A stretch of 63,571 nucleotides of DNA, the filler included, from Craspedostauros australis (lineage: Eukaryota), in the NCBI GenBank assembly GCA_030167865.1. It is 12 parts of 12 records of this genome, joined end to end, with 100 filler letters (N's around TTAATTAATTAA, not from the genome) between each part and the next. Parts side by side here need not be neighbours in the genome. Positions count along the whole stretch, not along the records: positions 38,101 to 45,591 come from JALAGF010005497.1; 11 more parts are not named here. One strand, 5' to 3'. The translations under genes and the position numbers were made by a program. Shown piece after piece: positions 12,997 to 51,800 of the stretch. How positions within the stretch are numbered: position 1 is the first letter of the stretch; each line of letters starts with the position of its first letter. The notes below the pieces were generated by a model. It searched no databases, was not told the DNA's origin, and was given only the letters and a program-made list of their open reading frames with translations.

Positions 12997-15900
12997 ATGC
13001 AATCCAACAACGTCGGAGCCGCTCGGTTGCCTCGCGCATTGCGAGACAACAGAGCGGCGCCGCCAGCAGCGCCCAACAACGCGGCGAGGGTCCCGTCCTT
13101 CGCCGAACCCTACACCAATCCTCCTGCTGAAGATGTCACCCCTTCGGCGGACGAAACGCTGGCGCAAGCCATGGGACGTCTGTGTGTGCAACAGAAACTG
13201 ACGGTCGAGCAGGAGATCATGGGCAAACTTGGGGTTCCTCCCGAAAATCCACAACACATGAACCTCCTGTTGCAGCAACTGCGTGCACGAGTGCAGTCCA
13301 TCAGGCACAAACCGGCCTTTGACCTTGCTCTGCGACAGAATCCTGATTTCGTGAATAGTCCGCAATTCCTTGGCATGTTTTTGCGCGCAGAAAGGAACGA
13401 TGTCAACAACGCAGCAGATCGACTTGTGCGGCACTTCGAAGCCAAGCGAGAGATCTGGGGTGATGCCAAGCTCACCAAGAGGATCACCATGGACGACTTC
13501 ACCGCAGAAGAGAAACAGTTCTTCACCAAGAATGGCGGCAGCATCCAAATGTTGCCAATACGGGATCATGCGGGAAGAGCCGTGTTCTTCTCGCACGAGG
13601 GAGAACTTGCTGAAAGCCTCATGGACCAGAACCCTGAGATACACAACGTAAGTTCCGCACTTCTGCATCAGGCAATGTCTCCGATGTCCATCGATGGACG
13701 ATGTCTGTGAAGCTCATGTGCTTAGCTCATAACAGGTGTTGCAATAGGACCACGTGCATCCGCCAACGCGAAGTGCAGTTGGCATATGTTCTGGTATATG
13801 CAAGTCAATCCGCTGCTCACCCCATCTTTCCATCACTTCCTCCGACTCTGCTCCAACCCTGCTCCAACCCTGCTACATTCGTGTGTGCTCTCCTCTCTCC
13901 CAATTCCATAGACTCGCTTTCTGTGGTACCTTATCATGGCACACATGGAAGACAACGACGAAACACAGATCAATGGAATTGTGTACGTGGGATATGGAGT
14001 GGATTCCACACCCAAAGGAACCGAAGCCGAGCGCGATGTATGGTGGGCTACATGCAAGGCTCTCAACGCCATGCCCATCCGAATTACAGCCTTCCACTAC
14101 TGCTACCAGGGGGACCTGATGAAACCGTTGGTCAGCCTCGTGGCGCGGGGCCTGAGTCCCAGCCCTCGCTGCCGGATTCAACCAATCTGCGGTAAGTCAA
14201 TCCACCCATGCATGCATGTCTGCTTTAGCGTTCAACCATTCGCGCAGAGTTCGAACAGGCATCCGTTCGATTGAAGCGCAACCAAGTTCTCGCCTTTCCG
14301 CACGTTTCAAGTACACCTTCACTCACCGATCGTTCTTTGTTTGTTCGTGCTGTCCCTGCTGTTTGCTTTCAAATCGACATCACATCGCAGGAGGCCATGC
14401 CATATGCGTCGGTCACTTGAAGACGTTTGGCATCCCCGTGCGCGTCCTTCCCCTCGACGAGGACTACGCCGCATCATTCAAGCAGAGAGGCCAAAGCAAG
14501 AAGGAGCACCTTCCCATGCTGCTCAATCGCAGGGAATTCGAAAGGTTCCTGAGGCGCCGCAAGCTGGTTGAAGGGCATCTGATGGAGTACGCTCGCCGCA
14601 TCGAGCTGCTGAGACCGACCGACGTCATTGTTGGAAAGGGACAGAACCATCAGAAGCATCACGGAAACCTCGAATTCGCCAGGCTTGTGAATGAGCGCGT
14701 AGCAAAATTGGGCGCGAAGCGAAACAACAAGCAGAAGGGTGATATTGGCATGAAGGTGGCCGTTCAGATGAGGCAGAGCGGCATCCAATTCGTCCAACAG
14801 GTGGAAGAGTGTGGGATCTGGCGGCTTGCCGACTGGGAGGCAGCCGAGAACAAAGTTCGCATGCTGGTGGACCACATCATCGAGGCCAACAAGAACGAGG
14901 GCGAGGGCAAGGAGGAGGATAGTTCAACCAGCGTTGCTTCCAAGAGAACGAGAAGCATGCCACCACATCCTGGCTCATCACCAACTGCAGACAATCTTGA
15001 GACTGCCGGCATGCCTGTTGCCAACGAAGATGAGGATGAAGGCGACGAAGGCCGCGTTGCCACCACGAGCAGCCACCAAACCAGTGCGGGCAGCGACCAA
15101 GATGCCAAACCAGCCGCCAAACGAAGAGCGACACCGACAAGCGCACCCGCAACAGTTCCGGCTCCCGCTGTATCGTCGCCAGCGATGCAAGCAGCAGCCG
15201 TTGACGATGACGAAGTGCAAGTTGTCCAAGTCACCCCGGGCCCGACTTCGTCGCAGCTCACTACTTCTGCTGCCGGTGCCATTGCCCCACAAGCACAGAC
15301 TCCAACGCCATACGGAGCTGTGCCTTCTCCCAATTTCCCCCAATATCCGGCTCATCCGCGAGCTCCAACCTTTGCCGCCTACCAACAAGCGTCAATCCAA
15401 GGAAGAGGCGTGCAGATGGGTCAGGCTGGAATGCCAACAGGCATCATCCCGAACGCCCCGCAGCCGCCACAGAACCTGCAAGCGCAACAGGCGAGACCCA
15501 ACCTACAAGCGTTTGGTCAGCCCCAGCAGTTCCTGGCAGGTCCAGCCAGTGGCCTCCCCAATTTTACCATGCCTCAGAACGTTGGCTTTCGGGGCACTGG
15601 TGCCGTCCCGTTCCAGACTAGTATCGCGGGAGGGAACGTGGTCGGTGGAATGCCGGTGCCAACCAATCTAAATTCAGCTTCGGCCGCGCAACCGAATCTG
15701 ACCGCAGCCGTTGCTCCCAATACCGTCATGATCCCAACAAATGCTGGGACCCTTCCCAACCTCATGACAGGAAGTATTGGTGGAGTGACAGCATTCAACC
15801 AAGGCACACCATACATGCAGCTCCCACGGAATCTCACACCAAATCCCACCCAAAACTTCACGCAGAACATGCAAGTGCCCATGACATCCGCACAGGCACA

Positions 15901-16813
15901 ATCGCCGACAATGGTCGCCGAACAGATGGGCATGCGAATAGGGAGGCAGCTGGCCTTGGAGATGGCTATGGAAAGGGGAGTGCGGATTGGATTCAACCAA
16001 ACGATGGCGCAAGGAGCCATGCCGAACGCAAACATGGCAAACGTGAGCACCATGCATACTCCGACCATACCTCAACAAGGAATGATGTCAGCTCCAAATG
16101 TAAACGCGAATGCTGCTCCCACGACGCAGTTGCCGCAGCAACAGCCACCAATAACTGGCAGTGGTGGAGCACCGAGCGATTCTTCAACCACTCACGGACT
16201 TCAGCCGGCGTCCACTGCTTCTGACCAGTCGATAACGCCGGATTCGCAAGGATCAGAGCCAACAGTGGTCATTCCACCGACACCACCAGAGGGAACGGCA
16301 GCGGCAGCCAAGCAACCAAAGACGGCAGCTCCGACCGCACCAGAACCTCCAGCTGTCGCGCCACCCGAAGACACCCCGGAGAAGATCACAGAGCGAGACA
16401 CAGACATTTTGTTCGGCAGGAGCAGAACCTTTCACAAGCATTCGGGTAACATATACATGCACTCTCTTGTGAATGAACGCAAGCACCTCTTCGAGGCTGC
16501 AGCTAGAACCGAACGAAGACAATTCGTCACGGACGTGGTGGATGAATTGGTGGCCGAGGGGAGACGATTCTTGACTAGGCATACGAAGGACGCCGACGGA
16601 ACTTGGATCTGGGTCGAGGTTTCCAAGGAGAGGGCGGCCGAGAAGCTGGGGCATGCCTTCCGTGATAAACGCAAGGTGGTCGAGAAGGAGAAGAGTGGAA
16701 AGGCTTCCAAAGCCGGCGATGAAGATTCGGAGGCTGGAGCATCATCCAGCGGCAAGCAGATCTCAGAAGAAGCCGCTGCTGCCGAAGGCCTGGTCAACCT
16801 TAGAATGAAGTGA
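12997..16813 (+). CDS. CRAL-TRIO/Sec14-like N-terminus plus two DUF6824 domains; join(12997..13647,13912..14191,14391..16813), ~1117 aa
   Basis: GTAAGT donors at 13648 and 14192, AG acceptors at 13911 and 14390 keep frame; FLGMFLRAE..AADRLVRHF and RDHAGRAV (CRAL-TRIO-like), LKTFGIP..LP linker, two D(V/I)xxG(K/R)...HxGN...F...W...K motifs (~14610-14870, ~16395-16670). Confidence 0.85.
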
Positions 16814-17613: not shown

Positions 17614-17854
17614 GATGCTCGTTGTTGTGGCTTTGGTTCCGTGCGTCGGCGTTTTAGCGATGGTGGGTGTCAGAAACTTGGTTATCGGAACCCCATTGGT
17701 TCCTTGACACGAATTCCGAAGATCCGCTTCAAGGTTCCGGATCTGTCTCCAAACGTGGGGTTCGGCGAAGTGTTCGTTCGATCTACTGGAATGCTGACGA
17801 ATCGGAGGATTCGTAGTCTCTCTCGCTAAGGTGGTTACTAGTTTAGCTCTATTA
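17614..17854 (-). mobile_element. 5' part of TA..TA LTR-like repeat (homologue of 28893-29132)
   Basis: Reverse complement aligns over ~240 bp with 28893 onward and starts at the same TAATAGAGC terminus. Confidence 0.85.
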
Positions 17855-24113: not shown

Positions 24114-26739
24114 CGTTGACACTTACACTATCTCGCGCACTGCTGCGCGATACGGATGGAATGTCATAGGACGAATGAATCCATGTGAGGACTGTGCAAT
24201 CGGCAAATCTCGACAAAAATGTTTGTCGAAAATGTCACTGGCGAAGGCGAGCAGAGTTGGCGAACGGCTGTTCATGGATACTTCCAGTGTCCAGACGTAC
24301 AGTTTTGGTCGCGGAAAATTCTGGCTCCTGATCATCGACGACTACAGCGACTACTGCTGGAGCTACTTCATCAAAGAGAAGAGTGAAGTGGGATCGAGGA
24401 TGATGTCGCTCTTGAGATGGCTCAAGGCGAATCAGAACGTGACTGTCAAGAATATCAGATGTGACAACGCAGGCGAGAACTACAGCGCAGAGGCGCAGCT
24501 ACTCAAGGAGGGATTCGGCCCGACGTTCGAATACACGGCAGCTTCAACTCCACAGCAGAATGGTCGCGTGGAACGAAAGTTCGCCGTGCTATACGGAAAG
24601 GTCAGGGCGATGCTCAATCAGACCCACCTACCAAAGCACCTACGAGGAAAGCTATGGGCTGAAGCAGCAAGAACAGCGACGCAACTCGAGAACATCATCG
24701 GAACGAAGTCGAGAGAACCGGCTTGCGTGCTATTCAATGGGCAGACACCCACATACGTGGACGGACTGCGTTTGTTCGGCGAGATTGGCATGGTGTTCAT
24801 CGGAGGCCGAGTGNNNNNNNNNNNNNNNNNNNNNNNNNNNNNNNNNNNNNNNNNNNNNNNNNNTCGCGTGGAACGAAAGTTCGCTGTGCTATACGGAAAG
24901 GTCAGGGCGATGCTCAACCAGACCCACCTACCAAAGCACCTACGAGGAAAGCTATGGGCTGAAGCAGCAAGAACAGCAACGCAACTCGAGAACATCATTG
25001 GAACGAAGTCGAGAGAACCGGCTTGCGCACTATTCAATGGGCAGATACCCACATACGTGGACGGACTGCGTTTGTTCGGCGAGATTGGCATGGTGTTCAT
25101 CGGAGGCCGAGTGATCAAGGCGAAGCTGGACGATCGGTCCAAGCCTGCGATGTTCGTCGGATACGGACAGTCACATGCGAGCGGAGTATACCGAATGATG
25201 AACCTCGCAACGGCAAGGATCCTAATCACGCGAGACGTGACGTGGATGAACCAGTCGTATGGGCAATTCAAGGGTGTTGAGAATGCCAACAGATCGGTGA
25301 TATATGATCTGGATGACGACGACTCTGAGACTGGAGATGCATTCCAGAGAAAAAGAGTGACTTGGGGGCGAAGCTCGAATATCGCGAGGAACGCGAAGAT
25401 CGGCATCGCAGAGAGGAGCGGAAGAGCCGGACACACAAAGGGAGACACAAATGACACCGCTCACGAGCAAGATGACTTGCTACCTACCCAAGGGGAAGAA
25501 CCATCGTACAATGATGAGGGCGATGAATCCGGAAGGGACAATGACCGTGCGGGGCGGATCGATTCGGCTATTGAGCAATCGACTGCTCGCACTCCCATGA
25601 GACCGTTAGCGCGCGTACCGAGGATGGTGAGTGGCCTGGCAGGCTACAACAACTCACCGATTCCCCAAGAGGAGAGGGAACGAGAATCAGAANNNNNNNN
25701 NNNNNNNNNNNNNNNNNNNNNNNNNNNNNNNNNNNNNNNNNNGGACGGACTGCGTTTGTTCGGCGAGATTGGCATGGTGTTCATCGGAGGCCGAGTGATC
25801 AAGGCGAAGCTGGACGATCGGTCCAAACCCGCCATGTTCGTCGGATACGGACAGTCACATGCGAGCGGTGTATACCGAATGATGAACCTCGCAACGGCAA
25901 GGATCCTAATCACGCGAGACGTGACATGGATGAACCAGTCGTATGGGCANTTCAAGGGTGTTGAGAATGCCAACAGATCGATGATACATGATCTGGAAGA
26001 CGACGACTCTGACACTGGAGATGCNTTCCAGAGAAAGAGAGTGACTTGGGGGCGAAGCTCGAATATCGCGAGGAAGGCGAAGATCGGCATCGCAGAGAGG
26101 AGCGGAAGAGCCGGACACACAATGAGAGACACAGACAACACCGCTCAAGAGCAAGATGACTTGCTACCTGCCCAAGGGGAAGAACCGTCGGACAATGATG
26201 AGGGCGATGAATCCGGAAGGGACAATGACCGTGCGGGGCGGATCGATTCGGCTACTGAGCGATCGACTGCACGCACTCCCGTGAGACCATTGGCGCGCGT
26301 ACCGAGGATGTTGAGCGGCCTGGCCGGCTACAACAACTCACCGATTCCCCAAGAGGAAAGGGAACGAGAATCAGAATCAGATTCGGAATCGGAGGCAAAC
26401 GAAGCATCAGCATCAGGCGATGAGGATGGCTACGATACTGCGCAGGAGACGATGATAGTCCCCGCGGCTACTGGAGGACCCAGCTTCCATACAGATGGGT
26501 CGATGTTCAACAGGGACGTCGCCAGCATGATGATCGATACTACCCAAGGGAGGATGAGACTTATCGACTTCATTGCTGCGAGTCAGGATGTTGAGAACGA
26601 ACGGAATGATGAGTGGTCAGAACAAGCCAACACGGCTGTGATGTTGGATCCAATGACGTTCGAGGAGTGCTGGGATCATGCTGATCCCGAGAAGAGAGAG
26701 AAGTGGCGTGGGGCTATCAACAAGGAGTTCACCGACATG
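24114..26739 (+). mobile_element. Ty1/Copia pol fragment (GAG-pre-integrase, integrase, SH3, linker, start of RT), with assembly-duplicated blocks
   Basis: CEDC, LFMDTS, IRCDNAGE, PQQNGRVERK, LWAEAA, MFVGY, P.TFEECW..KWRGAINKEF; closely related to the element at 38101. Confidence 0.95.
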
Positions 26740-38000: not shown

Positions 38001-38100
38001 NNNNNNNNNNNNNNNNNNNNNNNNNNNNNNNNNNNNNNNNNNNNTTAATTAATTAANNNNNNNNNNNNNNNNNNNNNNNNNNNNNNNNNNNNNNNNNNNN

Positions 38101-41100
38101 AAAGGCAGGGCACAAGATCATCCAATGCTTCAAGCTGAAGGCAGCAATGAAGGAAGCTGAGAGCGCCAACATGGCGATGGATGGCGACGATGCGATGGAC
38201 GATATGGCATTGGTCATCGCAGATGGTGGTTTCGTTGAGATTGACGATCTTGATGAGATCGAACTCGAGGATGGACTCGAAGAGGATCTCTTCGAAATCA
38301 TGGAGTCGTTCCCTTCGAACGAGAGAGCGGAATCGCCGATCACCGAAGGCATCCGCGACCTCATGAACGACGATCTGCTCGAATCAGACGAGAGCATTGG
38401 GGACACCGAAATCGCGATGCCAGGGGTCGACGTCAACAACGCGCCACCTGCGCAAGGTGAGGAAGCAGTGGCCACTTGGATGAGTAACGCCATCGACTAC
38501 TTCCTGCGCGACGAAATCGACCGCGTGTGTGAACGCAGCAGAACGGATGCATGGTGTCCAATCTGCCTCGCGCGTGGAGCGATGTATTCGTGGTGCACAG
38601 AATGCACCGAATTCGACGTGTTCAAGATTCGAGCACGTTGGGCGTTCAGAGACATCCCAACAACCACCGAACCTGAAAGGATTCGCTGTCGAGCAATCCT
38701 GAGCAGGTTCAACTGCGTGGAAGACGCGATCAGAGTCTCCCTATCCAACGTATTGGCAGCCAACGACGTGCGTATCAACGACGCACTCCTCTGCTTCGAT
38801 GTGAGGAAGAAGTCCATCGAAGATGGAGTCAACTGCATGGGAGCTCGGGAGCTCTACTACATGCTGACTCAGATCGGCTTCAATGGAGCATTCGATGTAT
38901 CATGCAAGATTGTGATCATCAATGAATTGCTTGAGGAAAGACAGCTACCACTGCTACCCCAACACCTAATCATGAGGATGAGCAGAATGGCAGCATCACG
39001 ACTAATGTGGATGCACAACTGGGAGGACACCGAAGTACGCGACGGGCTGGAATGTCCAGAACTCCCAAAGGTCAGACCAATGGAGGGGAGTCCGCAATAC
39101 AAATTCGAACTCATGGAACACTTCGACCGAGCAAGATTCGGACACGAAATGGCCATGGTGATCGAGGATCACGAATCGAATGAGAGCAACCGCGAGCTGG
39201 TTGCACCAGACCAACATGAAGCAAACACATGGTTGGGGGATACCGGCGCATCGTGTCACTTGACGAACAATGATGAGGGCATGACTAATGTGCGCCTCTC
39301 GAATTTCTCTGTGAAGGTGAGAAGCGGAAAATTCCTCCGCGCCACCAAGGTCGGTGATCTACGCATGCGAGTGATGCAGAAGGACGGCAAGAGCGCCATC
39401 ATCATCCTGAAGGGAGTGCGTTACATGCCTAAGCTCTGGGTCAACCTGTTGAGCATCGGCAAGGCGCTCCATAATGGATTTAACATCAGTAACAATGGCG
39501 TGATCATCGCACTGGATAAGAACGGGCAGCACATCCGATTCGATCGGATCATGGCAACTCACAGCGGATTCGTGCTCGGTGTGAACATGGTACCTGCCCC
39601 CAAGAGTGAAGAGATGGCAAATGTCGGGCTTGATACAAAGAAGCCCATGGATGTGAATAAGCTCCATAAAATGCGAGGCTACGTTGACTCTTACACGATC
39701 TCCAGGACGGCGAGACAATATGGATGGAATGTCACTGGGACTCTCAATCCATGCGAGGACTGCGCGATCGGAAAGGCGAAGCAAAAACGCCTGACCAAAA
39801 CTCTCCAACTACGAGCGAAGAAGGTCGGAGAACGACTCTTCATGGATACTTCAAGTGTCCAAGCTACGAGCTTCGGGCATGGAAAGTACTGGTTGCTGGT
39901 CATCGACGACTACAGCGACTACTGCTGGAGCTACTTCGTTAAGGAAAAGAGCGAGGTCGGTCCCAGACTGCTATCATTGTTGAAGTGGCTATCAGGCAAT
40001 CAACAAGTGACAGTGAAGAATGTCAGATGTGACAACGCCGGAGAGAACTATAGCGCCGAGGCACTACTACTGAGGGCAGGCTTCGCCCCAAACTTCGAAT
40101 ACACCGCCGCATCAACTCCTCAACAGAACGGAAGAGTGGAACGGAAATTCGCGGTTCTCTATGGTAAGGTCAGGTCAATGCTGAACCAGGCGCACCTACC
40201 AAGGCAACTGCGCGGCAAACTATGGGCAGAGGCAGCAAGGAACGCAACGCAGATCAAGAACATCATCGAGACTAAGTCGAGAGACCCTGCATGCCTGCTA
40301 CTCAATGGACAGACCCCAACCTACGCGAAAGGATTGCGTATCTTCGGGGAGATCGGAATGGTCTACATCGGCAGTCGCGCAATCAAAGCGAAACTGGATG
40401 ACAGATCCAAGCCAGCCATGTTCGTCGGGTACGGACAGTCTCATGCGAATGGTGTATACCGCATGATGAATCTGGCAACCACGAGAATCCTAATGACCAG
40501 AGACGTGACATGGATGAACCAGTCGTATGGGCAATTCAAGGGTATTGAGAATGCCAACAGAACACAATGGGTGGATCTGGGAGACGACGACTTCGATGCC
40601 GGAGCAGCACTCCGCAATACGAAGGTTACTTGGGAGCGTGACGCGAGTATCGCAAGAGAAGCGAAGGCCGTATCAGCTGATCGAAGCAGAGAGTCCGGAA
40701 CAGACTACGAAGATACCACAGGCTATGCATCGAAGCAAGATGAACTGCTACCTGCCCAAGGGGACGAACCATCGGACGATGAAGACGACGATGAATCCGG
40801 AAGGGACGACACACGAGTGACTCGAAGACAAGCCGCCGAAGGCAGAGAAATCGAGGAACCCCCAGCGAGACCTGTGGCAAAGATGTCAAGGATGCTACGG
40901 GGTTTGGTCCCGTACAACAATCCACCAGGATATGAATCCGACTCAGAATCAAGCAGTGGAGACGATGAACCAGCTGAGACAGCTGAGATGATCCCTGCAA
41001 CTACGGGCGAACGAGACTTCCATTCGAACATATCCATGTTCAATCGAGACGTGGCGAGTCTAATGATCGACACCACGGAAGGGAGAATGAGGCTGGATGA

Positions 41101-44042
41101 ATTCATCGCAGCAAGCCAACGAGTCGAGAGAGGGGATTGGAACGAGACGTCCGAGCATGCATACACGGCAATGATGCTGGACCCAACCACCTTCGAGGAA
41201 TGCTGGGATCATGCAGATCCAGCGAAGCGAAGGAAGTGGCGGGAGGCCATCAACAAGGAGTTCNNNNNNNNNNNNNNNNNNNNNNNNNNNNNNNNNNNNN
41301 NNNNNNNNNNNNNNNNNNNNNNNNNNNNNNNNNNNNNNNNNNNNNNNNNNNNNNNNNNNNNNNNNNNNNNNNNNNNNNNNNNNNNTGGTTGCCTGTGGAT
41401 ACTCACAGATTGCTGGAGTGGATTTTTCCGCTCATCATGCGCCAGTGATCCACGATGCAACGTACCGAGCGATGCTGACCATGAAGATGTTGTTGAAGAC
41501 AGACAGCATCATCATCGACTTCGAAACCGCCTTCCTGCACGGAGACCTCGAGGAAGAGATCTACATGCAATGCCCCAAGGGAATGGAGCATGAGCCGGAC
41601 GAATGCCTGCTACTGAAGAAGACCATCTACGGGTTGGTTCAGAGCGCAAGGCAGTGGAATAAGAAGCTTGTGGACATCCTGATCAAGCTTGGCTTCCGGC
41701 AGAGCAAGGTGGACCCGTGCCTGCTAATTCGGAATCGGGAAGGGAACCTCGTCCTCATCGAGACGTACGTCGATGATTGCCTGTGCATCGGAAGCACCCT
41801 CGAACTGAAGCGACTGGTGAAGGACATCAAGCGCGAACGATTCGGAATCAAGGTCGAGGATGGACTCGAAGACTACTTGAGTTGCCGGATCGAATTCAAC
41901 AAGAGTGAAACCAACTGATGGGTGAACCAGCCACACATCATCAAGAACATCACGGATACATTCAAGAGCGACGTGACGAAGCTTCAACGATATGGAACCC
42001 CAGGCACACCAGGTCAAGGGATCCAGAGGAACAGTGAAGCACCCAAAGTCGGCAAGGATTGACACAGCAGATACCGCAGTGGAGTGGGTATGCTACTATA
42101 TCTGGTGAAGCATTCGAGACCAGACATCGCGAATGCAGTCCGAGAACTCACAAAGGTGTTGGATGGACCAACGACCACAGCATACAAGGAGATGCTGAGA
42201 GTGATGAAGTTCGTATCGGACACGAGAGAGTACGGATTGAGGATGGAGCCCAAGCCGTTGAACAACAACGCATGGAAGATCGTGGTGTACACCGACAGCG
42301 AGTTCGCTGGAGACAAGGACAACCGCATCAGCGTTGGAGGACATCTGGTCCTACTGCAAGGAGTGCCTATCATCTGGAGATCGAAGGCACAACGCAGCGT
42401 GACATTGAGCTCGACCGAGGCCGAGTATGTTGCACTGTCAGAAGCTGGAAAGGAGATCCGCTTTTTGACTCAACTGATGGAGGACATCGGATTGGAGATG
42501 GAGAAACCTGGGACACGCGGCAAAATGTCTGGCACGATCAAAAAACCTCTTTCCTTAAACCAATTAAATAGCTTCGGTGTCTTTTGATATTATTTAGGTC
42601 ATCACAACGAAATTGATAAACTCATACTGTCATGTGTCATTGTCGGGAATGTCGGGAATGCCGGGCGCTTTGTCGGGAATGTCGGGAGTTTTGTCGGGAA
42701 TGTCGGGTGTGTTGTCGGGAATGTCGGGTGCGTTGTCGGGAATGTCGGGCGTGTTGTGGCGATTGTCGAGAATGTCCGGAGTCTCGGCACCAGACATCCG
42801 CACCTGGATGGGCAGAGCTCACGGGGAACGGACAGACGAAACAATCGAAGAACGAAAACGCGTGGTGGTAACAAAGGAAACAGACACACACGGGACGAAA
42901 CCAACACACTCGCGATCATGTTGTGGATGTGTACTTGACTGGCACAAGTTGAAGCACGACTGGAGATTTTGAACTGCAGCTGCCCCTTTGCGTCCGCATG
43001 CCAAACGTTTCTAGTCATAGGCTACAACGAAACAATAACTTTGTGTTTACAAGTCCCAGGAGCTTAAAAATTTACGAATCTACTCTACACACCATAATAG
43101 GATGACATAAGTGCTTATGTTTAAATATTACAATCACTATATGAGTGCCCTGCATTGCATACATGGACTGTGATGTGATGCGAGGCGACATGGTGTGTCG
43201 TTGTTGTGGCGTCAAGCGAAAAAGCTGCCCGNNNNNNNNNNNNNNNNNNNNNNNNNNNNNNNNNNNNNNNNNNNNNNNNNNTGGACTGTGATGTGATGCG
43301 AGGCGACATGGTGTGTCGTTGTTGTGGCGTCAAGCGAAAAAGCTGCCCGTTGTTTGTCCAAACCGGGAATCCGCACGGCAACAACAAACAACACGCTCAT
43401 CCCATTTGGGTGGCATTTTGTGTGTGTTCGGGTTGAAACTTCATGGATCGCAACAGCACTCACGCTCCGCCAACGTCATCCAAACAGATTGTCAACTTTG
43501 GTCGAGTATGTCGACTGTTGTGTGAGGAATGTCNNNNNNNNNNNNNNNNNNNNNNNNNNNNNNNGCTTTGTCGGGAATGTCGGGTGTCTTGTCGGGAATG
43601 TCGGGTGCTTTGTCGGGAATGTCGGGAGCTTTGTCGGGAATGTCGGGAGTTTATCTGCTACGACTCAAGGTTCTCTCAAGGGAGTAATTGACGCAATACG
43701 CGGCAATGATGTATGACCAATTCATAATATCATGACATTATTTTGCTTAACACGTTTCCGGTTGTAGCAAATCCTGACTTTCTGCCGAGTGTCCCTGCAG
43801 ATGTGATGGTCGACAACGTGGGGGCGATCTTCATCGCCACCAATCCATCGACATCAGCGAGAACGAGACACATCGATATACGCANCCACTTCATCAGAGA
43901 GCTGATTGCTAACAAGGAGGCGAGAGCTCGATTCGTGAAGTCNGAAGATAACATCTCCGACGGNTTCACGAAGAACACTAAGAAGGAGATCTACGATCGG
44001 CACAAGGGGAGCATCATTCAGCCCAGATCAGCATTGGACTGA
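38101..44042 (+). mobile_element. Ty1/Copia gag-pol (end of Zn knuckle, PR, IN, RT, RNase H), inactivated
   Basis: GHKIIQC knuckle, WLGDTGAS protease, DDE integrase, IYGLVQS/YVDD RT, TDSEFA..SSTEAEY..RHIDIR RNase H; order PR-IN-RT-RH; in-frame TGA at ~41916 and ~42060; split by insertion 42511-43794. Confidence 0.96.
42511..43794. mobile_element. Non-autonomous PIF/Harbinger-like TIR element nested in Copia RNase H
   Basis: 22-bp TIRs (GGACACGCGGCAAAATGTCTGG vs GGACACTCGGCAGAAAGTCAGG, 18/22), CTG duplicated at 42508-42510 and 43795-43797; removal restores EKP|ADVMVDN in frame; 21-bp TGTCGGGAATGTCGGG subterminal arrays. Confidence 0.9.
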
Positions 44043-44052
44043 ACATGGTGGA

Positions 44053-44440
44053 TGATATCCATAATGATTTTGGCCTGGTACTGGCCTACGTGGCTTGCGT
44101 CCGGACGCAAATTGGAGGTGCAGTTTGCGTCCCCACGCAAATTGGGCCAATTTGCGTCCAGACGCAAGCGGCGACTCAACGGACTAGCCCAAATACGCTT
44201 TACGAGAAGCCGTTTTTTTTCAAACCCTTTTTCGCTGGCCATCTCGACTCACGACATGACTCATGTCTTATGACAATTCTCACCGAATTCCTTACTTCTT
44301 ACTCCTCTACTAATCCTATTAGTCAAATACTGGTCGGGGGCTGTCTTCGGACAGCACTCACAAATAAACAACAAGAGCTCCGACCAGGGCACGAAACAAC
44401 GGGCCAATACGTCTTTCGTAGTTACTTGCACTGTTTGACA
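44053..44440 (+). mobile_element. Probable 5' LTR of a second Copia lineage (left edge tentative)
   Basis: Ends ...TTTGACA immediately before a tRNA-like PBS and 76 bp before a gag ATG; contains AATAAA and an inverted repeat at 44093-44169. Confidence 0.6.
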
Positions 44441-44455
44441 GATTAAGAGTCGTGC
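44441..44455 (+). promoter_or_regulatory. Primer-binding site complementary to the tRNA-Lys(CUU) anticodon arm
   Basis: GATTAAGAGTCGTGC; reverse complement contains GACTCTTAATC, the conserved tRNA-Lys(CUU) anticodon stem-loop. Confidence 0.7.
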
Positions 44456-44516
44456 TTACCAACACTGAGCAACACCCAACACCACACCACCTTTTACCAT
44501 CTTACGAGTTATCACC

Positions 44517-45591
44517 ATGGACCGTCCAACCAACGTCAACACCTTCAACAAGATCATCCAAGAGCTGGTTCAGCTCGATGACGACGAGATGGCGTTCATC
44601 GGCGAGAAACTCGGGAGAATCGATCGTGTCATCCGTAACTCGGACGTCACCATCGTGGCGGCTTTGGCGCTCTCGCCAACGCTGTCATCGATCAACATCA
44701 CAAACATCCTCCGCATCTTCGCGTACGCGCGAGCCAACACCATCACCGCACGCACCGATTGGGCAGCAATCGACTTGTTCAACGAAGCGAACAGCTACGA
44801 GCCACCGGCAGTCAGCACGCCAGTCGCAAATGCAGCTGCTCAAGTGCGATCGGAGATGGCGATCAGGGAGGCAGCCACAGCAGCGGAAGCCACGGGAACC
44901 GCGGGTCGCGAAATCACCGTCAGCTCACCGAGCCGCGCGAGACGCACCCCGCGATCACCACGAACCCCACGGACTCCATCAGGATGGAAGTTCGACAAGA
45001 TCAGCATGCCAGAGGCACCCGAGTTCACCGGGAACAACAGCGACTGGTATGACTGGAAGATCGCATTCAAGCGGCAACTGGTCACATCCAGATACGCCGC
45101 GTACCTCGATGTCGACAAGCCATCACACTACGCAGAGGACATCGACGCGCAGCTCTACACTGTCCTGCACACCAAGACAGAGAAGGGATGCGCGGCATTC
45201 ATCGTGGAGGCGCATGACCCGAGCGGCCATGACGCATACCAGGCGCTCGTACGCAACTATGAGTCCGTCGACCACAAAGCTGAGGCCATCGCAGAAGAAG
45301 AACAGAAGATTGCCGAGCTCCGTTACGACGGATCAGAGCCCTTCCCAGTCTTCGTCAATGACTTCTCCAAATGCATCCGTGTCATGGAGCAGAACGGAAA
45401 GCAGATGACCGACCAGCAGAAGATCGCGAAGTTCTTTCGCAACATTACCGACGATCGCTTCACAAGCGAGATGTCCAGATTCCGTAACACGGAACAATCC
45501 TTCAACACAATCCGCGAGGCATTCATGCAACATGATGCGCTACTCACGAAGTCGGAAGGACACTACTCTCCCAAGCGCAACCGTCGCTACC
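44517..45591 (+). CDS. Copia-type Gag (capsid region), 3'-partial
   Basis: PEFTGNNSDWYDWKIAF, AQLYTVL, SGHDAYQALVRNYE, LRYDGSEPFPVFVNDF, QKIAKFFRNI; follows LTR end and PBS. Confidence 0.8.
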
Positions 45592-45691
45592 NNNNNNNNN
45601 NNNNNNNNNNNNNNNNNNNNNNNNNNNNNNNNNNNTTAATTAATTAANNNNNNNNNNNNNNNNNNNNNNNNNNNNNNNNNNNNNNNNNNNN

Positions 45692-48600
45692 ATGGGTCAA
45701 CACGGTACAAAGCGAGGCTGGTGGTGAAGGGATACGAACAGATCCCTGGAGTGGACTTCACAGAGTCATTCTCCCTGGTCGCAAGTGATACCACAATTCG
45801 AACAATGCTGGCGGTGTGCCTGGCCAACACTGGATGGGTGATCAAAGCCCTGGATGTGGAGGCAGCATTCCTGAACGCAGAGATTGAAGAAGAGGTGTAC
45901 ATCGAGATCCCAGAAGGATTCGTGGACGGAGACTTTGACGGAAGGGCAGATCCAGAATATCGTCACAAGCATGTTGCAAAACTGCTGAAGGCGGTGTATG
46001 GAACGGTTCAAGCACCCAGAGCATGGATGAAGACTTTCACAGCAGCACTGGTGGACATTGGATTCACCAAGAGTCTGGCAGATCCATGCTTGTTCGTGTA
46101 CAAGTCGAGCGGGCAAGTCACAGCACTGGTGATCGTGTATGTCGACGATGCTGCTATCGGAGGAGACCCAGTCACAGTCGAATGGATCAAGGAAGAGATC
46201 GCACGCAAGTTCNNNNNNNNNNNNNNNNNNNNNNNNNNNNNNNNNNNNNNNNNNNNNNNNNNAAGCCCTGGATGTGGAGGCAGCATTCCTGAACGCAGAG
46301 ATTGAAGAAGAGGTGTACATCGAGATCCCAGAAGGATTCGTGGACGGAGACTTTGACGGAAGGGCAGATCCAGAATATCGTCACAAGCATGTTGCAAAAC
46401 TGCTGAAGGCGGTGTATGGAACGGTTCAAGCACCCAGAGCATGGATGAAGACTTTCACAGCAGCACTGGTGGACATTGGATTCACCAAGAGTCTGGCAGA
46501 TCCATGCTTGTTCGTGTACAAGTCGAGCGGGCAAGTCACNNNNNNNNNNNNNNNNNNNNNNNNNNNNNNNNNNNNNNNNNNNNNNNNNNNNNNNNNNNNN
46601 NNNNNNNNNNNNNNNNNNNNNNNNNNNNNNNNNNNNNNNNNNCTTGGAGAGCTCACCAAACATCTGGGAGTATGGTACAAGAGGATGACTGATGCAGATG
46701 GCAAGTGCCTGGTGGTCAGCATGGACGACTTTGTGGAGCAGATGATCAAGGAATTCGAACAGCACTACGGATCGAACATCAGACCCTTTGAGACCCCAGG
46801 ATACCCATCAACTACCCTGGTGAAGGCAGCCGAAGATGATGAAGTGGACAATCGCGCTGGATACCGATCCATTGTTGGCAAGCTCCTCTGGATGATGAAG
46901 AAAGTGGGACCAGAGTGTGCCAACGCTGTCAGAGAACTTGCATCACATCTGGAGCATCCAACCAAGGAACACTGGAAGGCGATGGCGAGACTGATCGGAT
47001 ACATCAAGGCTGAGATTGCGAAGGAGGACAGCTATGCCATCAAGCTCAGGAAGCCGCGCAGGCTGGAGATTGAAGCATGGTGCGATTCGGATTACGCAAC
47101 GAACAAGGATCATCGTCGCAGCGTCTCAGGCAACATCGTGACGGTCGGAGGGTGTCTTGTGAGCTGGCAGTCCAAGACACAGCGATCGGTGACACTCTCG
47201 AGCACAGAGGCGGAGTACGTGTCGATGGCAAACTGCGCAACCGAATGCNNNNNNNNNNNNNNNNNNNNNNNNNNNNNNNNNNNNNNNNNNNNNNNNNNGG
47301 ATACCCATCAACTACCCTGGTGAAGGCGACCGAAGATGATGAAGTGGACAATCGAGCTGGATACCGATCCATCGTTGGCAAGCTTCTCTGGATGATGAAG
47401 AAAGTGGGACCAGAGTGTGCCAACGCTGTCAGAGAACTTGCATCACATCTGGAGCATCCAACCAAGGAACACTGGAAGGCGATGGCGAGACTGATCGGAT
47501 ACATCAAGGCTGAGATTGCGAAGGAGGACAGCTATGCCATCAAGCTCAGGAAGCCGCGCAGGCTGGAGATCGAAGCATGGTGCGATTCGGATTATGCAAC
47601 GAACAAGGATCATCGTCGCAGCGTCTCAGGCAACATCGTGACGGTCGGAGGGTGTCTTGTGAGTTGGCAGTCCAAGACACAGCGATCGGTGACACTCTCG
47701 AGCACAGAGGCGGAGTACGTGTCGATGGCAAACTGCGCAACCGAATGCAAGTTCGCCAAGATGCTGCTGGATGAGATGACNNNNNNNNNNNNNNAGATCA
47801 CTCTACATGGCGACAACACTGGAGCAATCTTCTTGACCAAGAACCAGCAGGTTGGACTACGCACCAAGCACATCGATGTGGCATATCACTTCATCAAGGA
47901 GATGGTACAGGGAGGAGAGATGACCATGAAGTTCACACCATCCGAGATGAACTTCGCGGATCCCATGACCAAGAATGTGAAGGAGAGCATTCATGAGAGN
48001 NNNNNNNNNNNNNNNNNNNNNNNNNNNNNNNNNNNNNNNNNNNNNNNNNGGTCAGCATGGACGACTTCGTGGAGCAGATGATCAAGGAATTCGAACAGCA
48101 CTACGGATCGAACATCAGACTCTTTGAGACCCCGGGATACCCATCAACTACCCTGGTGAAGGCGACCGAAGATGATGAAGTGGACAATCGAGCTGGATAC
48201 CGATCCATCGTTGGCAAGCTTCTCTGGATGATGAAGAAAGTGGGACCAGAGTGTGCCAACGCTGTCAGAGAACTTGCATCACATCTGGAGCATCCAACCA
48301 AGGAACACTGGAAGGCGATGGCGAGACTGATCGGATACATCAAGGCTGAGATTGCGAAGGAGGACAGCTATGCCATCAAGCTCAGGAAGCCGCGCAGGCT
48401 GGAGATCGAAGCATGGTGCGATTCGGATTACGCAACGAACAAGGACCATCGTCGCAGCGTCTCAGGCAACATCGTGACGGTCGGAGGGTGTCTTGTGAGC
48501 TGGCAGTCCAAGACACAGCGATCAGTGACACTCTCGAGCACAGAGGCGGAGTACGTGTCGATGGCAAACTGCGCAACCGAATGCAAGTTCGCCAAGATGC

Positions 48601-48872
48601 TGCTGGATGAGATGACNNNNNNNNNNNNNNAGATCACTCTACATGGCGACAACACTGGAGCAATCTTCTTGACCAAGAACCAGCAGGTTGGACTACGCAC
48701 CAAGCACATCGATGTGGCATATCACTTCATCAAGGAGATGGTACAGGGAGGAGAGATGACCATGAAGTTCACACCATCCGAGATGAACTTCGCGGATCCC
48801 ATGACCAAGAATGTGAAGGAGAGCATTCATGAGAGGCTGGTGCCATCCATCAGACAAGGAGGGTTGAAGTGA
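45692..48872 (+). mobile_element. Ty1/Copia RT-RNase H (third family), blocks assembled 2-3 times
   Basis: YKARLVVKGYEQIPGVDF, LDVEAAFLNA, VYGTVQAPRAW, VYVDD, WCDSDYA, SSTEAEY, TKHIDVAYHF; no stops seen; purine-rich tract at ~48888-48904. Confidence 0.96.
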
Positions 48873-51800
48873 CAATCGACGTCATTTTGAGATGAAAGGA
48901 GAGGTTCTGCACAAACAGGGNNNNNNNNNNNNNNNNNNNNNNNNNNNNNNNNNNNNNNNNNNNNTTAATTAATTAANNNNNNNNNNNNNNNNNNNNNNNN
49001 NNNNNNNNNNNNNNNNNNNNGCTTGCGCATGATTGTAGTGACAGTTGGGTTGATGCCAGCATATGGACAGAAGTTGGTGTTGATTGAGGCGAAGTAGTTC
49101 TTGCGAGTAGGCCTGTGTACTGTGTGCTGCGTGAAGAGTGCAGTGTGTTGTGTGCTGCATGGCTGTGGCGACAAGGAACTGGAGGTTGTCTGGAAGCCCT
49201 GCAATTGTGTATTGCATTGCACTTGGTCCCATCAGGATGATGTNGAGTGGATGAAAAGTATGGATGACAAGAAAAGGAGAAGGAGAGAATGGGTGTGATT
49301 GTGTTGGTGTGCAAGTGTTTGAAGTGCTGCACACAAACGCACGATGGGCAATTGCTACGGTGATGGTGATGGGTTGCTGCAACTGCGGTTGTGTGTCAAC
49401 ACTTACCTCCAAGCCAGTGCATGTACTGGAAGTGCATGACCTCCACGATTGGATGGATGAGAAGACAAGAACTGCATCCAGGTTGGTGCAAGTCAACCTG
49501 ATGACGCAGACGAGGTTGCTTGGGCCTTTGGCAACATTCTTCATTAACTGCTTGTCGGCATGGCCATTGCAGAGATCCTCGAGGAGGTACCCTGCGCACT
49601 CCACGCATCCCACGATCATGTTCTCAGATAATCCTTTCATGTGCGCGACAGTGGCAGTGGCATGGAACGAATGGTACAGACTCTCAAGGACAACGCAGGC
49701 ACAGATGATCTTTGTGATTTAGCCACAGTGGACATCCTTTGGTATGACATGATGGCTTCGACGCATTGATGGTACCATGCATTCCACCATTTCTTGCTGG
49801 ACATGCAGGAGGATTTGGTCGGTTGTTGATGGCATTGATGTCATTGATGTCATTGATGGCATTGACGGCTGTGGGGGACTGGCCGATGAGCACAGTAGTT
49901 GACCATTGCTCCAAAAGATCTTCGGATGCGAAGAGCGGTATCNTATGTTTGGTTGGCATCTATTGGTGCAGCAGTTTGTCCATTCTGTGTGTTCTGCCAT
50001 TCGTGGANTTGGTCGTTTGTCTGTTGGTTGATTTGCGCTGCTGAATTGTGGATTTTGTTTGTTGTGCGGAGTGATCACTTGTCTGCCCATTCATTTGCGT
50101 TTGTTTGTGTTGGTTTGTTCATGCGTTCGGGAGCGGCGAGCGGCGACAGTTTGGAATGGATTTTGTGGATGGAATTGTTGATCGTACGATGCTCATGCTG
50201 TTTGACATTTGAGCCACGCAGAATCTGTAGTGTGTGCNNNNNNNNNNNNNNNNNNNNNNNNNNNNNNNNNNNNNCCAGAGGAGCAACATCAATTAGAGCA
50301 CAATGATCAATGAGTGGCATTGATGTAGGTGATGACAAATCAAACTGGAACAAGTGATTGTTGCCAAATACTCTGCTGATTTGTTGGTTGCAGCCAACAG
50401 AACTCAGTCAGGTGTTCTCTGTTATGTACCCTGCAGGCTCTGCAGCTGTGACCTGTGAGCTCTGCTTGCTGCCAAATGATGCAGAGTGATCTGTTGATCG
50501 TTTTGAGATACTTTGCTTTATGTACTATGCTCTTTGTTGGATACTCTGGTGTTGGGGATTTGTAGTTTCTTGATTGTTGCCAATTACTTTGCAGTGTATT
50601 CGATGCTTGATCCTTTTCTGCTGCTGGTTGCTTCCTGTTGGATCTTCTCTGTGAATTTGGTTGTGGTTGGATGCTCCTCGTTCTGAATGTGCTTCATTGC
50701 TTCACTACTGGTTGCCAAATGTCATGTGGTGGTGCTCACTACTAACCCACTAGTACCTGGTTGAAGCCAGATACTCTTCTCGATATTGATCCGTGTTTGA
50801 ATTCATTGGCTGTGGTTGGAAGCCCTTTTGCTTCTTCTGGAAACTGCCTACTACTTGTTGATCAATAACAATATTCCCGGANNNNNNNNNNNNNNNNNNN
50901 NNNNNNNNNNNNNNNNNNNNNNNNNNNNNNNNNNNGCAGTCTTCTCATCAGTTGGTTGCTTCAGGAAGCAGTCTGCACTCTGCATTCTGTGTGGCACCGG
51001 TGACTAGTATGTGTGTTGGTGTTTGCCGGATGTTGCCTTTCATGCTTTCGACGGGATGTGGTGCTCTCCGTCTGTTGCGACATACACTGATGAGATCTGT
51101 ACTATATGCTGTGCTCTCTGCCCANCAGNTGCTTCCAGCCAGATGCTCTGCTATTGACCATCAGCCNAATATNCAACTTCTGAAGACTACTGTGATGTTC
51201 ATTCCACANGCTCAATGCTCAGCCATCCACAAGGCTCTGAATGCACCAACTCACTGAGCATTGTCCTTGCCGCTGTGATGTCAGTGTTGTTGAGGTTGCT
51301 GTTGTCCTGATTCACAGCGTTTGCAGCTCGTTGTGCATTGCCAACTGCTCTTCACTGCCCTTTGCCCATTGACATCATAGAGGATGAGAATTTGGTCTGC
51401 AGTGGGAGTGCAAGGAGATGCAGCTCCAGATCCACCATTGCCCTTCAACCATACTTGTATTCCTTGTGTGTCGGTACAGAGTGTTGACGATGGTTGCTGC
51501 ATCCGTTGACGATGCTGNGGTAGGCGTTAGTGGAGTAGCTTGGTAGATTTCTCTGCTGGTGTGTTCATGAGATGGTGGTGTCTCATGGTCGTCGACGATG
51601 CTGTCGGCACTGAACTATGCAGTGTCATTCTGCTCAGCAAACACTGAGCATATCTTCGATAGCCACAATGGAGTCGTTGTTAATGATATGGTTGACCTGC
51701 GGCCCTGGTTGACTTGCTGTGCTGGATGCAATTGCGTTGTTGTTCAGTTTCTGCGGTGGATGGTGTTGTTGGGACGAATCTGTTGGTCCACCCAACGCCT

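Follow-up and report, generated by a model that had tools for sequence, protein, structure and literature searches.

A Copia retrotransposon of Craspedostauros australis with a putative primer-binding site for the 5' half of tRNA-Lys(CUU)

Half-tRNA priming is a defining yet sparsely sampled trait of one branch of the Copia retrotransposons. For copia itself, the work of Kikuchi in 1986 and of Ke in 1999 is said to have given biochemical proof of half-tRNA priming by a fragment of initiator tRNA-Met (tRNA-iMet). FunCo1 Copia elements of Pezizomycotina fungi have an internal tRNA-Lys primer-binding site (PBS), ATTAAGAGTCT (Donnart et al. 2017, PMC5445492). A study of Candida albicans Tca2 and related families gives internal regions of tRNA-Arg(UCU) and tRNA-iMet as PBSs, some with 'extensive' homology (PMC4139406), and anticodon loops of tRNA-Tyr, Ile, Asp, Asn and iMet serve as PBSs in fungal Copia/Helenus families, according to Kojima 2024 (PMC10886601). 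For diatom Copia elements we found no description of the PBS type in a literature search whose coverage stopped short of Repbase, the Gypsy Database and most subscription journals; the terms 'primer binding', 'tRNA' and 'PPT' are all absent from the CoDi paper (PMC2806351). Here we describe a Ty1/Copia (Pseudoviridae) long terminal repeat (LTR) retrotransposon in DNA of Craspedostauros australis (GenBank assembly GCA_030167865.1) whose putative PBS is complementary to the anticodon arm of tRNA-Lys(CUU). The window, by which we mean the whole stretch of DNA analyzed, measures 63.6 kb (63,571 nucleotides) and contains 11 joints of the form N44-TTAATTAATTAA-N44, a six-frame stop linker, which link separate contigs (for example, at 38001–38100, 45592–45691 and 48921–49020). 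Because the window is such a chain of contigs, features flanking a joint are not to be read as genomic neighbors; the PBS and the gag frame discussed here sit together on contig 38101–45591 (JALAGF010005497.1).

On this contig, integrase (INT), reverse transcriptase (RT), RNase H (RH) and a stop (44042) are followed by 398 nt ending in CA, then by the PBS, a further 61 nt and the gag ATG at 44517. The core of the PBS is a 15-mer, GATTAAGAGTCGTGC, that directly follows the sequence CACTGTTTGACA, which ends at 44440 (TTTGACA, 44434–44440). In tRNA-Lys(CUU), the partners of the 15-mer are G26, the anticodon loop with the 5' strand of its stem, and U39–C40. Within it, GATTAAG pairs with anticodon C34-U35-U36 and then with A37, A38, U39 and C40, and the next base, 44456 (T), is unpaired with tRNA C25. 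The original prediction had placed TTTGACA and this 15-mer just upstream of a gag ATG, in the register that sets GATTAAG against the CUU anticodon plus AAUC; a direct read bore out the letters and coordinates, and the register is right. Its proposed complementarity to tRNA-Lys(CUU) at about positions 26–40 proved exact when compared with 73 environmental eukaryote-type genes and 2 viral genes. At a probability of roughly 0.8, we read 44441–44455 as the minus-strand PBS of a Ty1/Copia-type retrotransposon, pairing with nucleotides 26–40 of cytoplasmic tRNA-Lys(CUU) and primed by a half tRNA.

The environmental genes come from a metagenome scan for a degenerate pattern with tRNA-like or element-like flanks, which gave at least 120 stretches, with 80 loci fetched. 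A tRNA form is present in 78 of the 83 matches in these loci, and ARAGORN identified 73 tRNA-Lys(ctt) genes in 69 of the 80, each with the exact 26–40 complement. None of the 73 genes encodes CCA, 42 have TTTT within 15 nt downstream, and the tRNA genes that adjoin them carry A34 anticodons (agt, aag, agc, aga, agg, aat and aac). A34 anticodons, an uncoded CCA and a downstream TTTT are marks of eukaryotic nuclear tRNA genes. The remaining 11 loci comprise 7 cut or disrupted tRNA-Lys-like sequences (as judged by reading their contexts), 2 element-like loci and 2 unexplained ones. In three loci (L063, L067 and L083), tRNA-Lys(CUU) genes stop in or before the T arm and unrelated sequence follows, as if an insertion had occurred. 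In viral contigs, the reverse complement of the 15-mer occurs in 31 loci. Two are tRNA-Lys(ctt) genes by ARAGORN, both with the arm GAGC-G-CACGA-CTCTTAA-TCGTG; the remaining 29 resemble phage genes or chance matches, save one (L003) that is tRNA-like by eye, and none is retroelement-like.

The match abuts a CA and stops in the anticodon stem where the known half-tRNA elements do as well. For chance tests, we drew on metagenome loci for 170 distinct tRNA sequences covering 44 anticodon types. The interval from the pol stop to the gag ATG is 474 nt long and must hold the polypurine tract, LTR, PBS and leader, whether or not the two genes belong to one element. It contains a tRNA complement of 15–16 nt, and a complement of at least 15 nt arose in 7 of 3000 shuffles of the interval and in 0 of 217 other 474-nt pieces of the window, where the maximum was 14. 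Across the window, tRNA matches of 12–14 nt occur at roughly 35 sites, which is the chance level, and matches of at least 15 nt occur only at 44441. With up to 2 mismatches allowed, the 15-mer is found once in the window, against an expectation of 0.12.

Other primer sites were also considered. The original prediction had named a standard TGG-type PBS as the competing outcome, and none was found next to a plausible LTR end with any of the 170 tRNAs. A 12-nt match of the standard type at 44049–44060 (TGGATGATATCC) can pair with a single tRNA-Leu(aag), that of locus L058, over its 3' end with CCA added. The match begins 7 nt past the pol stop, and the coding sequence before it leaves no space for an LTR. 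Of the 6 tRNA-Leu(aag) sequences, just 1 fits, 12-mers are at chance level in the window, and we judged it a chance match. Another candidate, TGGTCGGGGGC at 44331, had no partner of at least 10 nt among the 170 tRNAs. The tRNA-sense 15-mer has no second copy in the window, even with up to 2 mismatches, which makes Tf1-type self-priming unlikely. On two other contigs, a 13-mer complementary to positions 28–40 of tRNA-Arg(ACG), at 17808(+) and 28939(-), was rejected as an LTR-edge PBS because the 241-nt repeat that encloses it continues 47 nt beyond. The two copies of this repeat (17614–17854, +; 29133–28893, -) share 92% identity and have no Rfam match.

The same site recurs in another element. 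Metagenome locus L065 reads ..CCGTTTAACA and then the 15-mer, with 7 of 8 bases as in the LTR tip of the window element, GTTT(A/G)ACA. Its ATG lies 54 nt past the 15-mer (69 nt from the first base of the 15-mer) and opens a 418-aa frame. With hhalign, this frame aligns to the gag profile along 265 collinear columns (probability 87.5%, E 3.6e-6). Judged by this profile match, the frame is best read as a remote Copia gag homolog. As BLASTP finds no similarity between it and the window gag, L065 would represent a distant lineage with the same PBS. At a second locus, L081, the LTR tip differs (..CATTACCA), and about 860 nt upstream of the junction is part of a TLC ATP/ADP-transporter gene with an apparent intron (L081:1–640, Pfam E 5.1e-20), which identifies the contig as eukaryotic. 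When the window, L065 and L081 are aligned three ways, the one block that they have in common is CA plus the 15-mer plus T, 18 nt in all. A constant primer site amid a diverging LTR, leader and gag is what function would predict. Two further loci, L068 and L098, have no open reading frame (ORF) or LTR features and were taken as chance.

The Copia identity of the element follows from its domains (Table 1), with integrase domains upstream of RVT_2 and RNase H pieces after the RT, which is the Copia order of protease (PR), INT, RT and RH. In the 38147 frame, Pfam matches Pol_BBD at amino acids (aa) 362–445 (E 4.6e-13) and SH3_retrovirus at aa 728–791 (E 4.4e-10), with a weak rve match at aa 559–641 (E 0.048). 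The RNase H of a second Copia family in the window aligns to the element in two parts by tblastn, aa 20–205 to 41976–42539 and aa 200–269 to 43812–44021. Between the two pieces are tandem repeats of 21 nt and N gaps, which together take up about 1.2 kb. The repeat unit, TTGTCGGGAATGTCGGG plus 4 variable bases, forms arrays at 42625–42794 and 43565–43671, and 68-nt blocks are duplicated around the N gap between the RNase H halves (43164–43231 = 43282–43349); these repeats and duplicated blocks inside RNase H reflect either an insertion or a mis-assembly.

Table 1. Features of the Copia element on contig 38101–45591, in window coordinates
Feature	Position	Strand	Content or basis
Copia polyprotein	38102..41593	+	Opens at contig start within gag zinc knuckle (..GKAGHKIIQC), then protease-like barrel, integrase
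Ty1/copia-type reverse transcriptase	41211..41918	+	Pfam PF07727 RVT_2 at 41211–41915, E 3.7e-30
RNase H region, two pieces	41976–42539 and about 43728–44042, stop codon 44040–44042	+	tblastn
3' untranslated region (UTR)/polypurine tract and lone assembled LTR copy (putative)	44043..44440	+	Between pol stop and PBS, one contig
PBS core (putative)	44441..44455	+	GATTAAGAGTCGTGC; exact complement of tRNA-Lys(CUU) positions 26–40
Extension	44457..44479	+	About 23 nt complementary to D-arm/acceptor-stem part, about positions 3–21, with small indels
gag, N-terminal 358 aa (putative)	44517..45591	+	Open frame from ATG 44517–44519, ended by contig end

The window gag itself has no direct Pfam match. 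An exhaustive HMMER search found 40 distant relatives, 26 of which were combined with the window gag in an alignment of 27 rows (A1), and 17 of the 27 rows match Retrotran_gag_2 (Pfam). Through this transitive homology, we assign the frame at 44517 as a Copia-type gag. No gag relatives were found in viral contigs or, at near or longer lengths, in a word-indexed protein search; 204 pattern matches in metagenome contigs yielded 0 confirmed relatives, and the look-alikes of the window gag in the ESM Atlas are unnamed clusters only. At the other end of the contig, the first codons complete a CX2CX4HX4C knuckle, precisely the part absent from the truncated gag. Because the knuckle half at the contig start complements the truncated gag, the simplest reading is a single element (or family) assembled through one collapsed or shared LTR, in the order knuckle-PR-INT-RT-RH-LTR-PBS-gag. 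The RT-RNase H at 45692–48920 belongs to the different, second Copia family and does not continue the gag at 44517, because the joint at 45592–45691 intervenes.

Within the pol-gag interval, we take 44440 to be the putative 3' end of the LTR because CA is present, the tip in L065 is alike and conservation with L065 and L081 starts at this CA (44439–44440). An RNA fold of 44320–44520 (z = -2.33) places a stem of 44322–29 with 44433–39 that closes directly before the PBS. Nested in this stem is a tetraloop hairpin, GCTGTC-UUCG-GACAGC, at 44340–44355; by eye, hairpins also lie directly 5' of the PBS in L065 and L081, the latter an approximately 70-nt near-perfect palindrome. For the 5' end of the LTR, TGTC.. 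at 44265 and at 44344 were candidates, as were the G-rich runs at 44335–44343 for the polypurine tract, and by eye none is decisive. Directly after the pol stop, in presumed U3 or 3' UTR, a 16-nt palindrome, TTGCGTCNNGACGCAA, occurs three times (44095–44110, 44125–44140 and 44152–44167), and its copies look like repeated sites for a dimeric factor, which we offer as a prediction.

We envision the following route of priming. RT would extend a 3'-OH at the LTR-proximal end of the duplex between PBS and tRNA. Since the 3'-OH is needed at that end and the intact tRNA runs 36 nt further, the primer cannot be the intact tRNA. Instead, it would be a 5' tRNA-Lys fragment with C40 as its last nucleotide, presumably released by cleavage directly after C40, within the 3' strand of the anticodon stem. 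Extension of this fragment would copy U5 (..TGTCAAACAG..) into minus-strand strong-stop DNA, and the downstream RNA at 44457–44479 could also pair with this half, in its D-arm and acceptor portion. Like the members of the hemivirus group (copia, Ty5 and Tca2), the element would prime from a half tRNA, with tRNA-Lys replacing initiator tRNA-Met or tRNA-Arg. The sequences show the complementarity, its location, its recurrence in a second element and the Copia identity; the priming itself and the origin of the downstream extension are inferred, as is the cleavage, by analogy.

The extension carries the complementarity beyond the anticodon arm. The 25 nt past the core, when reverse-complemented, read TGTT-GCTCAGTGTTGGTA against the D-arm TGTTAGCTCAGT-TTGGTA; tRNA positions 22–25 mostly have no counterpart in the element, and with one tRNA variant the pairing runs on into the acceptor stem (TTGGGT), to 44479. 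A local alignment score of 24, as obtained here, arose in 2 of 2000 shuffles and in none of 5537 25-mers picked at random from the window. The predicted duplex with the 41-nt tRNA 5' half has an energy of -47.8 kcal/mol, compared with -24.1 for the core alone and -36.6 +/- 3.0 kcal/mol for shuffled tails, 1 of 300 of which equalled -47.8. On this comparison, nearly the whole tRNA-Lys 5' half appears to be mirrored in the element, and about 35 of 40 primer nucleotides can pair.

Two origins could account for such an extension: it is either an extended PBS that stabilizes and selects the half, or a read-through imprint of the primer. The imprint could be made specific in a proposal that we regard as tentative and rather doubtful, namely that the roughly 38 nt at 44441–44479 are a fossil reverse-complement copy of the tRNA-Lys(CUU) 5' half, left behind as plus-strand strong-stop synthesis ran on into the attached primer, with a mature modified tRNA fragment as the template. 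Small indels at or near positions 9, 16–17 and 22–26 are all that separates the copy from the tRNA genes. These coincide with positions 9 (m1 purine), 16–17 (dihydrouridines) and 26 (m2,2G), which we take to be commonly modified tRNA sites, and this coincidence is what would point to a mature modified tRNA as template. If the fossil were real, the primer would be delimited by the DNA sequence alone, with C40 as its 3' end and a 5' end near nucleotides 1–3.

Several observations weigh against a half-tRNA-primed PBS at 44441. The copy looks damaged or mis-assembled, with its RNase H split and its gag ended by the contig end. The LTR end at 44440 rests on no LTR pair or target-site duplication, with one copy assembled and no second copy found in the window by repeat search and self-BLAST, and a check of the interval by eye gave no convincing polypurine tract or LTR 5' end. 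On the tRNA side, the scan pattern was built from the PBS, and the compared tRNAs are therefore common in environmental eukaryotes and not shown for the host; the window contains no tRNA gene, so the tRNA-Lys(CUU) of the host is not seen there. Moreover, tRNA-Lys normally carries t6A at position 37 and often m2,2G at position 26, both of which disfavor pairing, an objection that applies equally to copia and initiator tRNA-Met. Regarding recurrence, L081 is a candidate element, with a short frame that is gag-like by eye and has an hhalign probability of 4.9%. Finally, the extension is absent from both L065 and L081, where the corresponding scores are at chance level, and it is thus not required for a PBS of the tRNA-Lys type.

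Three other explanations of the complementarity deserve weighing. In the first, tRNA-Lys would be bound intact for packaging or dimerization, or the site would serve in silencing by 5' tRNA fragments, with priming by another route. The D-arm pairing does resemble the extra tRNA contacts of Ty1 and HIV that act in annealing and packaging. A link between PBS-tRNA pairing and silencing has also been drawn in Drosophila (PMC13537249). We nevertheless consider a role outside priming improbable, given that neither an alternative primer site by a plausible LTR end nor, in the window, a self-complement for Tf1-type priming was found, and that the duplex is flush with the CA of the LTR, which is the geometry that strand transfer needs. 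The closest analog, copia, is also said to be primed by its fragment.

A second explanation, which we consider quite unlikely, is that the leader captured part of a tRNA-Lys gene, pseudogene or tRNA-derived short interspersed element in antisense orientation, the true PBS being elsewhere or degenerate. The roughly 38 nt at 44441–44479 with their indels could pass for a decayed, reverse-complemented tRNA 5' half, and the copy is damaged in other ways. A captured fragment, however, would need to stop precisely at tRNA position 40 and right beside a CA, whereas L065 and L081 share the CA and the 15-mer without the rest of the tRNA; the 170 tRNAs gave no other PBS candidate by a plausible LTR end, and the Rfam tRNA model has no match in 44380–44540. 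That the complementarity is a coincidence and a conventional 3'-end tRNA primer is used at another site is very improbable: about 0.7 15-mer matches would be expected in 63 kb (by arithmetic from 6617 distinct tRNA 15-mers) and a TGG-type tRNA-Leu(aag) match does exist, but the interval shuffles and the other window pieces seldom or never reach 15 nt, the site recurs in L065 before a remote gag homolog, and the tRNA-Leu(aag) match leaves no room for an LTR and is confined to one of its six tRNAs.

Elsewhere in the window, the contig of the second Copia family (45692–48920) contains blocks of 277–300 nt duplicated at 98–100% identity on both sides of N gaps (for example, 46799–47098, 47299–47598 and 48135–48434), which is typical of scaffolding artefacts. 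Another contig, at 24115–26730, holds a diverged second copy of the integrase region of the 38147-frame Copia family, with 60–78% aa identity and no 5' end for comparison. An 865-aa ORF at 14216–16810 carries DUF6824 (E 3.7e-29), a family common in diatoms, and is the one feature of the window that hinted at the host taxon.

The half-tRNA reading of the PBS has consequences for both annotation and biology. It adds an alga-like host and a second, distant lineage, L065, with a tRNA-Lys(CUU) anticodon-arm site. Pipelines that keep only elements with a PBS for a tRNA 3' end would discard such elements, and LTRdigest filtering of this kind has been applied to a diatom genome (PMC7466962). The reading also predicts that the host contains a tRNA-Lys 5' fragment of about 40 nt ending at C40, which could also guide the host against the element. 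A near-complete complement to the tRNA half would make this PBS unusually long.

Among known systems, the geometry is that of copia and Ty5 (genus Hemivirus, Pseudoviridae), in which the PBS right after the CA of the LTR pairs with the anticodon stem-loop region, so that the primer would be a 5' fragment of about 39–40 nt; as in hemivirus-type PBSs, the site complements an internal tRNA segment that ends in the anticodon stem-loop, with CA before it. In contrast to copia and Ty5, which use initiator tRNA-Met, the window element would use the elongator tRNA-Lys(CUU), with priming by a fragment as the probable route. Ty1 has an extended PBS, with boxes that can pair with the D and T arms of initiator tRNA-Met, and the window element shares with it extra tRNA-arm complementarity downstream of the core, although Ty1 uses the 3' end of an intact tRNA, whereas here the complementarity would lie in the priming 5' half. 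Tca2 shares an internal, non-initiator tRNA PBS and differs in the tRNA and in the host kingdom (PMC4139406). In the families covered by the available portion of Kojima 2024, anticodon-loop PBSs swap tRNA species repeatedly within Copia, tRNA-Lys is not among them and the hosts are all fungi (PMC10886601).

The closest likeness is to FunCo1. Its PBS also pairs with the anticodon stem-loop of tRNA-Lys(CUU), and ATTAAGAGTCT equals 10 of 11 bases of 44442–44452, with the single base difference falling in the species-specific stem (PMC5445492). The window element differs from FunCo1 in its host, which is alga-like rather than fungal, in a pairing that starts one base further 3' (C40) and covers 15 nt to G26, and in the additional complement of about 23 nt to the D-arm and acceptor; the likeness lies in the PBS only, and we make no claim of membership in the FunCo1 clade. 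The original proposal of half-priming by tRNA-Lys is thus supported as an interpretation and is less new than had been hoped, an internal tRNA-Lys PBS having already been published for FunCo1 (PMC5445492). Priming of Copia elements by a half tRNA or through the anticodon arm is already known; what is new here is the near-complete mirror of the tRNA half.

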